From positions 113 to 64,112 of the forward strand of contig JAJQFJ010000052.1 in assembly GCA_021201185.1 (NCBI GenBank): 64,000 nucleotides of DNA, given 5' to 3'. The notes under the pieces are model-generated. The model made no database searches. It was given only the letters and a program-made list of their open reading frames with translations, and was not told the origin of the DNA. The translations under genes were made by a program, and so were the position numbers. Shown here piece by piece: positions 15,363-18,252 of the stretch (position 1 is the first letter of the stretch; each line of letters begins with the position of its first letter). The DNA comes from Clostridiales bacterium. GTDB lineage: Bacteria > Bacillota > Clostridia > Oscillospirales > Oscillospiraceae.

Positions 15363-16316
15363 GTGGAGTACATCACGATTCAAAAATCTGACCTGCGGGT
15401 GTCCCGCGTCTGTATGGGCGGATGCCCCATGGGACAGTACGGATGGGGTCAGGTAGAGGAGAAAAATCTCCTGGACGCTGTTTCAGCGGCCATCGACAAC
15501 GGAATCAATTTTTTTGACACGGCGGACACCTATGGTTTGGGCACCTCTGAGCAGACTCTGGCGAGGGCGCTGGGCAGCAGACGCAAGGATGTGATTATTG
15601 CCGACAAATTTGGTGTTCGGGTGGAACATGGACATACCTTTTATGATAACAGTCCGGAGTGGATCGAGCATGCGCTGGAGGGAAGCCTCAAGCGACTGAA
15701 CACCGATTACATCGACCTGTATCAGATTCATTACAGAGATGGGAAAACGCCGCTGGCAGAGGTGGTGGACAAGCTGGAGGAGCTGCGCCAAAAGGGATAC
15801 ATTCGCTACTATGGCCTGTCCAATATCCACGCCAATGATCTGGAAGAGCTGCAAGAACTGGGCGCAGACGGAGGCGGCTTCGTCTCCTTCCAGGACGAGT
15901 ACAGCCTGGCCTGCCGGAAGAACGAGGCGGACATCCGCCGTATCCAGCAGACGCTGAACATCACGCCCTTCACCTGGGGCAGCCTGGGACAGGGGATTCT
16001 GACGGGGAAATACGACAGAAACAGCACCTTCGGCGCGGATGACCGCCGGAGCCGGGATGTCTATGTGAACTTCCATGGCGCAAAGCTGGAGCAGAATCTG
16101 CAAATCGTGGACGCCATGCGGCCGATCGCAGAGCGGCACAACAAGCCGCTCTCCGCCGTGGCCATCCGGTTTATTATGGATTATATCAGCGGGTCAGTGG
16201 TGCTCTGCGGGGCGAAAAATCCCGGCCAGATCGAGGGCAATGTGACATCCGTGGGCTGGCATCTGGAGCAGGACGAGATTGACCTGCTGGAATCCGTCTC
16301 CAGGGAAGGAAAGTGA
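15363..16316 (+). CDS. Aldo/keto reductase
   Basis: GINFFDTADTYG (Asp/Tyr), IIADKFG, SLKRLNTDYIDLYQIH and LGQGILTGKY. Confidence 0.92.
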   Translation: MEYITIQKSDLRVSRVCMGGCPMGQYGWGQVEEKNLLDAVSAAIDNGINFFDTADTYGLGTSEQTLARALGSRRKDVIIADKFGVRVEHGHTFYDNSPEWIEHALEGSLKRLNTDYIDLYQIHYRDGKTPLAEVVDKLEELRQKGYIRYYGLSNIHANDLEELQELGADGGGFVSFQDEYSLACRKNEADIRRIQQTLNITPFTWGSLGQGILTGKYDRNSTFGADDRRSRDVYVNFHGAKLEQNLQIVDAMRPIAERHNKPLSAVAIRFIMDYISGSVVLCGAKNPGQIEGNVTSVGWHLEQDEIDLLESVSREGK

Positions 16317-16322
16317 AGGGAA

Positions 16323-17318
16323 ATGCAGATGACGAGTGAACAGCTGGCGTGGAAGATACGCAGACACGGAATTGAGATGACCCACCTGTCCGGTGGCAGC
16401 CATATCGGTGCGGTTCTGTCTGTGGCGGACATCATCGCCGTTCTCTATGCAGACGTGTTACATTACCGGGTGGACGAGCCGGAGTGGTCGGAACGGGACC
16501 GGTTTGTGCTGAGCAAGGGTCATGCCGGAGCCGCGCTCTATGCGGCGCTGGCGGAGACGGGCTTTTTCCCGGTGGAGGAGCTGAAAACCCACTATGCCAA
16601 CGGCAGCAGACTGTCTGGCCATGTGTCTCACCATCTGCCGGGCGTGGACTTTTCCACTGGCTCTTTGGGACACGGCTTGTCCGCCGCCGTGGGTATGGCG
16701 TATGCGGCAAAGAAGGACGGAAAGAGCTTCCGGGCGTTTGCGGTTCTGGGGGACGGCGAATGTGACGAAGGCTCCGTCTGGGAGGCGGCCATGTTCGCCA
16801 ACCACTTCCGGCTGGACAACCTGGTGGCCATTGTGGACCACAACTATATGCAGTCGCTGGATTTCTGCGAAAATACGCTGGAGCTGGAGGACTTCGCCTC
16901 CCGCTGGAGGGCGTTCGGCTGGAACGTGGAGGAGGTCAACGGAAACGACCACGATGCGTTGCGGGCGGCGTTCGGGCGGATCGCAGCCCGTGACAACCAC
17001 AAGCCGTCTGTCCTGATTGCCGACACAATCAAGGGCTGCGGCATCAGCTTTATGCAGAACGATATTCTCTGGCACTACCGCTTCCCCCATGACGGCTGGG
17101 AATATGACTGTGCGGTCAATGAGCTGCATCAGGTCAAGCCGGAGGGTGTGGAGGACCCCTATACGCCCAACGGGATCGAGCATCCGACGCTGCCTACAGA
17201 AACGGATGACATCGGAAACGATCATACCTACAGCCACACATGGGATACCGCCTATCCCGAACCCATGAGACGGGTCACGGCACAGCCGGGGACGGCGGAG
17301 CGAATCAAACCGGTATGA
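16323..17318 (+). CDS. Transketolase-like protein, N-terminal (TPP-binding) subunit, with a C-terminal extension
   Basis: GSHIGAVLS, DRFVLSKGHA, STGSLGHG and GDGECDEGSVWEA...N TPP motif. Confidence 0.92.
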   Translation: MQMTSEQLAWKIRRHGIEMTHLSGGSHIGAVLSVADIIAVLYADVLHYRVDEPEWSERDRFVLSKGHAGAALYAALAETGFFPVEELKTHYANGSRLSGHVSHHLPGVDFSTGSLGHGLSAAVGMAYAAKKDGKSFRAFAVLGDGECDEGSVWEAAMFANHFRLDNLVAIVDHNYMQSLDFCENTLELEDFASRWRAFGWNVEEVNGNDHDALRAAFGRIAARDNHKPSVLIADTIKGCGISFMQNDILWHYRFPHDGWEYDCAVNELHQVKPEGVEDPYTPNGIEHPTLPTETDDIGNDHTYSHTWDTAYPEPMRRVTAQPGTAERIKPV

Positions 17319-17319
17319 G

Positions 17320-18252
17320 GTGGATAAAGTGAGAGATACCTTTGTAAGAACGCTGATCGAGCTTGCGAAACAAGATAAGAATATTGAGCTGATCACCGGC
17401 GATTTGGGCTTTGGCGTTCTGAAGCCGTTTTGGGAGAGCTGCCCGAACCAGTTCACCAACGCCGGAATCGCAGAACAGAATATGACCACCGTGGCGGCAG
17501 GGATGGCGCTGGAGGGAAAGACGGTCTTTACCTACTCCATCGGCAACTTTCCCACCATTCGCTGTCTGGAGCAGATTCGGAACGACTGCGCCTATCACGG
17601 CGCAAACGTCAAAATCGTCTGTGTGGGCGGCGGGTTCGTCTACGGCTCCCTGGGCATGAGCCATCAGGCCACAGAGGATCTGGCTATTATGCGGGCGCTG
17701 CCGGGCGTGGTGGTCATGGCTCCCGGCGATTTGGTAGAAGCTGAGGAGGCGACGAAGGCAATCACGGCATATCCGGGAACCTGCTATCTGCGCCTGGGTC
17801 GCGGCGGCGAGAAGCGGATTCATGATCACATTGACAACTTCCAGATCGGAAAGGCCGTGCCGGTCAGAGAGGGCGAGCGAATCGCCATCTTCTCCACTGG
17901 TGCGATTTTCGAGGAGGTGGAGGGCGCATATGAGCTGCTGACCCAGCAGGGCTATCATCCCGCCGTCTATACCTTCCCGACGGTGAAGCCCATCGACGCT
18001 GACACCATCCGGTGTTGTGCGGAGGAGTGCGAGCTGATCGTCACCTGCGAGGAGCACAACATCGTGGGCGGCTTCGGCAGCGCCGTGGCGGAGGTCATGG
18101 CAGAACTGCCCGCAAAGCGGGCGACCCTGCTCCGCATCGGGATGAACGATGAGTACAGCATCCTCGTGGGCAATCAGAAGTACCTGCGGGAGCAGTACGG
18201 AATGTCGGCGGCCAGGATCGCGGAGCGGATTGTGGGGAAGATTGATGGGTAA
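17320..18252 (+). CDS. Transketolase-like protein, C-terminal subunit
   Basis: NAGIAEQN, GMSHQATED, YLRLGRGGE and EEHNIVGGFGSAV. Confidence 0.92.
   Translation: MDKVRDTFVRTLIELAKQDKNIELITGDLGFGVLKPFWESCPNQFTNAGIAEQNMTTVAAGMALEGKTVFTYSIGNFPTIRCLEQIRNDCAYHGANVKIVCVGGGFVYGSLGMSHQATEDLAIMRALPGVVVMAPGDLVEAEEATKAITAYPGTCYLRLGRGGEKRIHDHIDNFQIGKAVPVREGERIAIFSTGAIFEEVEGAYELLTQQGYHPAVYTFPTVKPIDADTIRCCAEECELIVTCEEHNIVGGFGSAVAEVMAELPAKRATLLRIGMNDEYSILVGNQKYLREQYGMSAARIAERIVGKIDG

Follow-up and report, generated by a model that had tools for sequence, protein, structure and literature searches.

The 64,000-nt stretch of DNA analyzed here (the window; Clostridiales bacterium, contig JAJQFJ010000052.1) carries, at the head of a glycan gene island, four adjacent plus-strand genes encoding a priming phosphoglycosyl transferase (PGT), an aldo-keto reductase (AKR), and a transketolase (TK) split into N- and C-terminal subunits (TK-N and TK-C). 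The PGT gene (positions 14639 to 15325; Bac_transf, Pfam E=1e-50) is followed by the AKR gene (15363 to 16316; Aldo_ket_red, E=9e-63), the TK-N gene (16323 to 17318; Transketolase_N, the thiamine diphosphate [ThDP]/pyrophosphate domain, E=2e-44), and the TK-C gene (17320 to 18252; Transket_pyr, E=2e-26, and Transketolase_C, E=1e-21, the pyrimidine and C domains). Intergenic gaps within this set are 37, 6, and 1 nt, and 41 nt separate TK-C from the first glycosyltransferase gene of the GT4 family (18294 to 19394, plus strand; Pfam). Shine-Dalgarno sequences lie upstream of the TK-N, TK-C, and GT4 starts. Translation of TK-C probably begins at the GTG codon at 17329, which is preceded by AGGTGGA, rather than at 17320, since TK-C homologues open with MRDTF. 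The Pfam and NCBIfam calls and the tight spacing thus bear out the earlier note, made on this DNA before the present analysis, which described an AKR and a split TK at 15363 to 18252 directly after a priming transferase.

The PGT has 228 aa and a single Bac_transf domain (residues 13 to 204), i.e., it belongs to the small monotopic class that lacks a WbaP-type N-terminal membrane domain, and its closest solved structure is PglC (8g1n; E=1e-24, full-length match). It shares a median of 61% identity with the PGTs of 63 other TK-containing loci of the same kind (described below) versus 37.5% with the only other of the two PGTs encoded in the source genome, which argues that it is a dedicated partner of the TK. 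The AKR is a member of the AKR superfamily with an intact D/Y/K/H tetrad (FFDTADTYG, DKFG, and QIHYRD motifs), invariant in 58 related AKRs, and its nearest solved relatives are of the IolS/YhdN type. It presumably acts as the NAD(P)H ketoreductase of the set.

The TK of the island is distinct from that of central metabolism. Transketolase_N is matched three times in the source genome (2.2 Mb, 99.4% complete): by the TK-N of the island, by DXS, and by a separate, canonical split TK on another contig (C49), whose upstream gene is putatively ROK/XylR-like, judging from its sequence. Island TK-N is 43 to 50% identical to housekeeping TK-N subunits versus 61 to 99% to those of its own clade (80 loci). 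Among 399 sampled Clostridia species, 289 have a TK-N match, but identity reaches at least 66% in only four of them, the source genome included, and stays at or below 50% in the rest; this clean gap separates a rare, glycan-type TK clade from the common housekeeping split TK. The best NCBIfam model, NF004559, gives 258 bits for TK-N and 171 bits for TK-C against an equivalog cutoff of 488, and the island TK scores below every NCBIfam equivalog cutoff. TK-N matches Transketolase_N with 152.6 bits versus 37.7 bits for E1_dh, placing this alpha subunit outside the E1_dh family. Both subunits contain only TK-superfamily domains in Pfam, not the TPP_enzyme_N/M/C architecture of the decarboxylase superfamily. 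Their nearest solved structures are those of the split TK of Carboxydothermus hydrogenoformans (6YAK/6YAJ; E=1e-61 for TK-N and 1e-48 for TK-C).

A pattern scan over one genome per species returned 544 TK relatives, the best 80 of which are 61 to 99% identical to the island TK. According to their record titles, some of which may reflect binning errors in metagenome-assembled genomes (MAGs), these best 80 come from Lachnospiraceae, Ruminococcaceae/Oscillospiraceae, Christensenellales, Bacteroides, Prevotellaceae, Porphyromonadaceae, Salinivirgaceae, three Akkermansia MAGs, Gastranaerophilales, Planctomycetaceae, Atribacteria, and Omnitrophota. Metagenomic proteins 75 to 98% identical form at least 120 clusters at the 90% level. 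Genes were called with a strand-weighted caller in the 80 loci, two more, and the window; their products were clustered, and the clusters were labeled with Pfam/NCBIfam. For the 49 loci that extend more than 6 kb upstream of TK-N, presence was counted by tblastn. PGT, AKR, TK-N, TK-C, and GT4 recur in this order, and some loci have a gene for an EpsG polymerase, for an acyltransferase, or for a Branch-type glycosyltransferase between AKR and TK-N. PGT occurs in 45 of the 49 loci, AKR in 38, and a short-chain dehydrogenase/reductase (SDR) in five, usually in the order SDR-PGT-TKN-TKC, so that 43 have a reductase of either kind. Across 81 loci, AKR is found in 62, and eight have instead a 252-aa SDR that matches classical SDR models only. 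All four proteins are conserved to a similar degree, with median identities to the window proteins of 61% (PGT), 62% (AKR), and 71% (TK-N and TK-C each). PGT, AKR, TK-N, and TK-C thus make up one conserved cassette, and the cassette is widespread. The cassette TK-C sequences group into a single clade (SH-aLRT 97) of a quick maximum-likelihood tree. Members of Bacteroidales, Gastranaerophilales, and Clostridia are intermixed there, and very short branches separate sequences from different phyla, a pattern that we read as horizontal spread.

Six loci of a sister subclade (L105 type) have the order PGT-TKN-TKC with no reductase; in L105 (7437 to 9217) and L117, this reductase-less set lies directly 3′ of ParA/ParB partition genes, an arrangement seen in three Christensenellales/Clostridia MAGs. 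AKR, SDR, and the aminotransferase DegT substitute for one another among cassette loci and distant relatives. A Ruminococcus gauvreauii-type locus (L001:7312-8530) has, between a NusG-like gene and the SDR gene, a DegT gene in two fragments of 70 and 77 aa that appears to be a pseudogene; its SDR-PGT-TKN-TKC set is intact. A GT4 gene lies directly 3′ of TK-C in most cassette loci, and in about 20 of them TK-C is followed by GT4 together with TviB-like and TviC-like enzymes, a pair that should supply UDP-GalNAcA for the second sugar.

The active site was read from an alignment of TK pairs, 68 from cassettes and 25 of the housekeeping type, with Escherichia coli TktA, whose numbering is used throughout. 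The cassette clade keeps H26, H66, H100, G114, D155, N185, the WH motif (H261), R358, D381, E411, F437, H473, and R520. The ThDP/metal motif (D155, G156, and N185) and the cofactor-activating E411 are invariant in the 68 cassette TKs, and the catalytic histidines H26, H100, H261 (within a WHY motif), and H473 are all conserved. Other positions of the pocket are rebuilt: S385G, H461G, D469L, F434I, L466Y, P384F, I187M, G191D, and P101V are found in every cassette TK, I189S in 97%, and E468S in 91%, whereas most of the 25 housekeeping split TKs retain the canonical S/H/D at 385/461/469. In the yeast and E. coli enzymes, we take S385, H461, R358, and R520 to bind the substrate phosphate, D469 to hydrogen-bond the 2-OH of the aldose acceptor, and H100 (H103) to contact the C1-OH of the donor. 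Loss of the first, second, and fifth of these contacts should remove canonical recognition of sugar phosphate and aldose 2-OH, leaving a pocket predicted to be larger and more hydrophobic. The retained R358 and R520 suggest that an anionic ligand (phospho or diphospho) is still anchored, and the retained H100 favors a hydroxylated C2 donor unit. DXS uses pyruvate, and that of the source genome has Phe at position 100. A second feature of the clade is an acidic, proline-rich, conserved C-terminal tail of about 50 aa in TK-N (residues about 270 to 331; ...DPYTP.GI..P.LPT..DDI.NDH..S.TW...YPE.MRRV.A.PG), which is missing in housekeeping split TKs and in the L105 subclade, where TK-N is short.

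Two candidate roles were rejected: a DXS-like function in isoprenoid or undecaprenyl phosphate supply, as DXS is already encoded in the genome and H100, which DXS lacks, is retained in the cassette TK, and a phosphonate pathway, as no phosphoenolpyruvate mutase or TPP_enzyme-type decarboxylase is present.

The pocket substitutions extend beyond the cassette. An exhaustive HMMER search of 1.84 billion representatives, with TK-C as the query, yielded 1,618 matches at E<=1e-30. Among the alignable sequences of the top 150 (38 to 57% identity), I434 is present in all, G461 with two exceptions, and Y466 with three; position 469 is mostly Leu and otherwise Q, A, H, N, E, or Y, and none has the canonical S/H/D set. 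Since these matches share I434/G461/Y466 and lack the canonical set, the cassette TK belongs to a large, diverse, and, as far as found, uncharacterized TK-like family. Genomic contexts were read for six distant representatives, four of which were readable; the contigs of L131 (51% identity) and L137/L138 (42%) are too short. L133 (44%) has the order GT4-PGT-TKN-TKC-TylF methyltransferase-DegT-methyltransferase-PglF-like dehydratase; L135 (51%) has FnlA, a UDP-4-hexulose reductase, a 2-epimerase, TKN, and TKC with PGT genes nearby; and L136 (50%) has DegT-GNAT-DegT-TKN-TKC-PGT-Wzx. Three of the four readable contexts thereby link the family to tailoring of UDP-4-keto-6-deoxy-N-acetylhexosamine (HexNAc) and to a priming transferase. 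The fourth, L132 (46%), is a sugar-catabolic operon of the phosphotransferase system (PTS). Its atypical split TK (L132:7198-9934), with G461/A469 and Y in place of R520, lies with a GFO/IDH/MocA oxidoreductase and a GH1 glycosidase and represents a catabolic branch of the family.

Taken together, the canonical TK encoded on C49, the loss of three substrate-binding residues, and the joint travel of PGT, reductase, and TK across phyla make it very probable that the cassette is a dedicated module for tailoring the priming sugar, not a piece of central metabolism; the glycan-dedicated role proposed in the earlier note is thus upheld. What the module makes is a more tentative matter. Our leading reading, to which we give a little less than even confidence, is that TK branches a UDP-keto-sugar, the branch ketone is then reduced, and the product serves as the priming, i.e., reducing-end, sugar. 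Two items of background bear on it. Every TK product bears a new ketone beside CH2OH, and interchangeable AKR, SDR, and DegT partners fit because any such product carries this ketone. A PGT needs an NDP-sugar donor, and the conserved cassette contains no kinase or nucleotidyltransferase gene; the acceptor would therefore most simply be a UDP-sugar that already bears a carbonyl.

In the mechanism that we infer, a ketol donor (a ketose phosphate or hydroxypyruvate) would give dihydroxyethyl-ThDP on the split TK, which would add this unit to the carbonyl of the UDP-keto-sugar; the tertiary alcohol so formed would carry a C-hydroxyacetyl (glycolyl) branch. The likeliest acceptor would be UDP-2-acetamido-2,6-dideoxy-4-hexulose, attacked at C-4 and provided by a PglF-like dehydratase encoded elsewhere in the genome. 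The AKR, or the SDR in some relatives, would then reduce the branch ketone, which DegT would transaminate in distant relatives, so that a 1,2-dihydroxyethyl branch is expected here. Finally, the cassette PGT would move the eight-carbon sugar-1-phosphate onto undecaprenyl phosphate, and the downstream GT4 enzymes would extend it. That this is the first TK family to make a C-C bond on a nucleotide-sugar ketone, giving a 4-C-(hydroxyacetyl or 1,2-dihydroxyethyl)-branched 6-deoxy-HexNAc, an eight-carbon sugar missing from present monosaccharide catalogues, as the reducing-end residue of surface glycans made by hundreds of species from gut and rumen in several phyla, is a more specific proposal that we consider possible but doubtful.

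The dehydratase has a candidate in the source genome: an orphan PglF-like UDP-HexNAc 4,6-dehydratase (CoA_binding_3 plus Polysacc_synt_2) on contig C31 (14247 to 15890; L122:10248-11891, minus strand). It has no PGT or glycosyltransferase nearby, its neighbors being an anthranilate synthase, a hexapeptide acyltransferase, CmpB, and a 377-aa protein without family, and it may supply the window cassette. A PglF-like or FnlA-like dehydratase lies directly beside or upstream of the cassette in 11 of the 49 loci. The earlier note had observed that no sugar-nucleotide dehydratase or nucleotidyltransferase adjoins the AKR and TK genes, and this holds across the whole island from 14.6 to 40 kb, where the only related gene encodes an uncharacterized NTP_transf_5 protein (38650 to 39852). 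This absence does not, however, argue for a different substrate, as the note had suggested, since 46 of 50 cassette genomes and the source genome itself encode a Polysacc_synt_2-family dehydratase, usually outside the locus.

Several observations weigh against branching of a UDP-keto-sugar. No dehydratase lies within 10 kb in 38 of the 49 loci, and the genome-level frequency of Polysacc_synt_2/PglF-like dehydratases in cassette genomes (92%) compares with 92 of 120 background Clostridia (77%), an enrichment too weak to serve as evidence. Reductase and dehydratase are not anticorrelated within the 49 loci (11 have both, 32 a reductase only, and six neither), nor are the reductase-less L105-type cassettes enriched for a nearby dehydratase; gene content therefore leaves the role of the reductase and the order of steps unfixed, and the reductase could instead generate the keto group or simply serve as a 4-ketoreductase of the ordinary kind. 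R358 and R520 would be as compatible with a plain sugar phosphate as with a UDP-sugar. Membership of the PTS-associated L132 enzyme in the family means that an altered pocket alone is no proof of sugar-nucleotide chemistry. Acceptance of a ketone or nucleotide sugar by a TK in vitro is also without precedent (PMC12247030).

The alternative that survives best, although we consider it unlikely, gives the two enzymes separate roles. The AKR or SDR would act as a 4-ketoreductase yielding UDP-QuiNAc or UDP-FucNAc, by a logic like that of WbpV/WreQ, or would oxidize a common UDP-sugar and so introduce the keto group, and the TK would make a separate small building block or substituent. The interchangeability of AKR and SDR, the existence of reductase-less cassettes, and the position of the AKR gene ahead of the TK genes are all compatible with it. 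However, the known UDP-4-keto-HexNAc reductases of which we are aware, such as WbpV and WreQ, belong to the extended SDRs rather than to the AKRs or the 252-aa FabG-like SDRs, and the cassette SDR matched classical models only. The proposal that an oxidoreductase introduces the keto group ahead of the TK in miharamycin biosynthesis (PMC12247030) also lends it some credit. Nevertheless, the invariant partner of the PGT is the TK rather than the reductase, and no transferase for a TK-derived substituent is conserved in the cassette.

Somewhat less probable still is chain extension, in which TK would add a C2 ketol to an aldehyde, either a sugar-nucleotide aldehyde or an open-chain 2-acetamido sugar phosphate, and AKR would reduce the 2-ketone to give a C7 to C8 sugar or alditol phosphate in the glycan. 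Aldehydes are the only acceptors proven for TKs (PMC12247030). A 2-deoxy or 2-acetamido aldose would be in keeping with the loss of D469 and its 2-OH contact, and a phosphorylated acceptor with the retained R358 and R520. Yet the cassette encodes neither an enzyme that makes a sugar-nucleotide aldehyde nor a kinase or nucleotidyltransferase that could activate a sugar phosphate for a PGT requiring an NDP-sugar, and distant relatives adjoin 4,6-dehydratases, which yield ketones, not aldehydes.

We regard as improbable a role in precursor supply, whereby TK and AKR would channel intermediates of the pentose phosphate pathway into a ketose or polyol phosphate (for example, that of xylulose, erythritol, or arabinitol), to be incorporated by other island enzymes such as the Stealth phosphotransferase and the NTP_transf_5 protein. 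Both genes are indeed present in the island, the latter as an uncharacterized nucleotidyltransferase, and the TK keeps both phosphate-binding arginines and all catalytic residues; but neither gene is conserved alongside the cassette (for Stealth, clustering is seen in about three loci only), S385, H461, and D469, which normally bind ketose and aldose phosphates, are all replaced, and the conserved partner is the priming transferase. An ordinary pentose-phosphate TK with a detoxifying AKR, placed in the island by chance, would account for the generic Pfam/NCBIfam matches of both but is scarcely credible given the subequivalog scores, the canonical TK elsewhere in the genome, the PGT synteny kept in more than 45 loci across phyla, and the invariant pocket substitutions.

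The cassette opens a glycan island of about 25 kb (approximately 14.4 to 40 kb of the window) with 46 to 59% GC between flanks of 62 to 68% GC. Its borders are a suf operon with a ParE toxin gene on one side and a P-type ATPase on the other, and every island gene lies on the plus strand. A promoter-like site on this strand, found by a consensus scan and by reading of the sequence (14406 to 14433; GGGACA-16-TAGAAT with an extended −10 TG), lies just 3′ of a terminator-like hairpin (about 14295 to 14345) and about 200 nt 5′ of the PGT gene, and is the putative operon promoter. The hairpin ends a gene pair (13485 to 14345) exactly at the left border of the island, in which the ParE-family toxin gene (13830 to 14264) follows a 111-aa open reading frame that may encode its antitoxin. 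GC content is also uneven within the island (14000 to 40000), being 55 to 59% in the PGT-AKR-TK head and 45 to 52% in the glycosyltransferase and export body, and the two may have different origins. TK-C is followed by five glycosyltransferase genes (four GT4, the first of which would add the second sugar, and one GT2) and an EpsG-type polymerase gene, and further downstream by genes for a GT2, the Stealth phosphotransferase, acyltransferases, Wzm/Wzt and more glycosyltransferases, a pyruvyltransferase-FrhB fusion, and the NTP_transf_5 protein. One Acyl_transf_3 gene is split into two overlapping plus-strand reading frames (27072 to 27440 and 27422 to 28090, covering profile positions 3 to 104 and 125 to 323), probably a frameshifted O-acetyltransferase or an assembly error. 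The fusion protein (32448 to 34748, plus strand; 766 aa) joins a polysaccharide pyruvyl transferase to a 2x[4Fe-4S] ferredoxin domain and to FrhB/FdhB-like N and C domains; we know of no characterized counterpart of a pyruvyltransferase with an FrhB-type redox partner.

If the favored branching of a UDP-keto-sugar is correct, many gut commensals among Clostridia, Bacteroidales, Akkermansia, and others would start a surface polysaccharide with an undescribed branched sugar, which could influence immune recognition, phage adsorption, and glycan typing. The enzyme would be the first natural TK with a ketone or nucleotide-sugar acceptor, a gap named in a recent review, and would open a route to functionalized tertiary alcohols. 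The system comprises only four genes, occurs in at least one cultured species, and has a clear residue signature.

ThDP-dependent C-C tailoring of sugars is already known, and the combination of a TK with a PGT in a surface-glycan cassette is, as far as found, new to the literature: full-text searches retrieved no paper on a TK in an O-antigen, capsule, exopolysaccharide, surface-glycan, or PGT context. The nearest proposals come from antibiotic biosynthesis. Split-gene TKs appear in a 2025 review as proposed keto-sugar hydroxyacetyl transferases for miharamycin and amipurimycin in Streptomyces (PMC12247030, section 2.3), and the same review adds 13 further Streptomyces split-TK sequences, all uncharacterized and all in antibiotic clusters. 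They resemble the cassette in having a two-gene TK next to an oxidoreductase in a sugar-tailoring cluster and a proposed ThDP-dependent transfer of a hydroxyacetyl unit onto a keto sugar, but belong to streptomycete clusters and a nucleoside-sugar core, whereas the cassette belongs to gut and rumen surface-glycan operons tied to a PGT; the likeness is one of architecture and context. Against the housekeeping split TK (6YAK/6YAJ), the cassette TK shares the split architecture, ThDP, metal, and catalytic residues, and differs at S385, H461, D469, E468, F434, L466, and P384, in the approximately 50-aa TK-N tail, in overall sequence (43 to 50% identity), and in its glycan context.

C2 branching of deoxy-keto sugars by ThDP enzymes is established for YerE and proposed or partly shown for two-subunit enzymes of the E1 type. 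The earlier note had invoked YerE/YerF, which make yersiniose A in the O-antigen of Yersinia pseudotuberculosis, and the general logic of a ThDP enzyme plus a reductase acting on an NDP-4-keto-6-deoxy surface sugar stands as reasonable. YerE is not the best precedent, though, since it is a single-chain member of the decarboxylase/acetolactate-synthase superfamily that uses pyruvate and a CDP-sugar, whereas the cassette TK lacks TPP_enzyme domains. Closer are Pau11/12 of paulomycin, together with Pau7, and the comparable pairs AviB1/AviB2 (avilamycin) and AlmDI/DII (aldgarose), two-subunit ThDP enzymes proposed to place a C2 branch on a deoxy-keto sugar, at C-4 or, in aldgarose, at C-3. These are alpha/beta enzymes of the pyruvate-dehydrogenase-E1 type that transfer acetyl from pyruvate, whereas the TK-type N subunit and retained H100 of the cassette suggest hydroxyacetyl. 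In the paulomycin pathway, the NADPH-dependent AKR Pau7 reduces the C-4 branch ketone attributed to Pau11/12, giving paulomycose its hydroxyethyl branch (PMC4753412), so that an AKR in such a role is not unusual, contrary to what the earlier note implied; Pau7 is an AKR5 enzyme, distinct from the IolS/YhdN type nearest to the cassette AKR. For the priming step itself, the closest parallel is the PglF-PglE-PglD-PglC route to diNAcBac in Campylobacter, where a small PglC-like PGT is likewise coupled to tailoring of a UDP-4-keto-6-deoxy-HexNAc and whose PglF-like and DegT enzymes recur among the relatives of the cassette; in the window, TK and AKR would take the place of the aminotransferase and the acetyltransferase, with the dehydratase encoded elsewhere.

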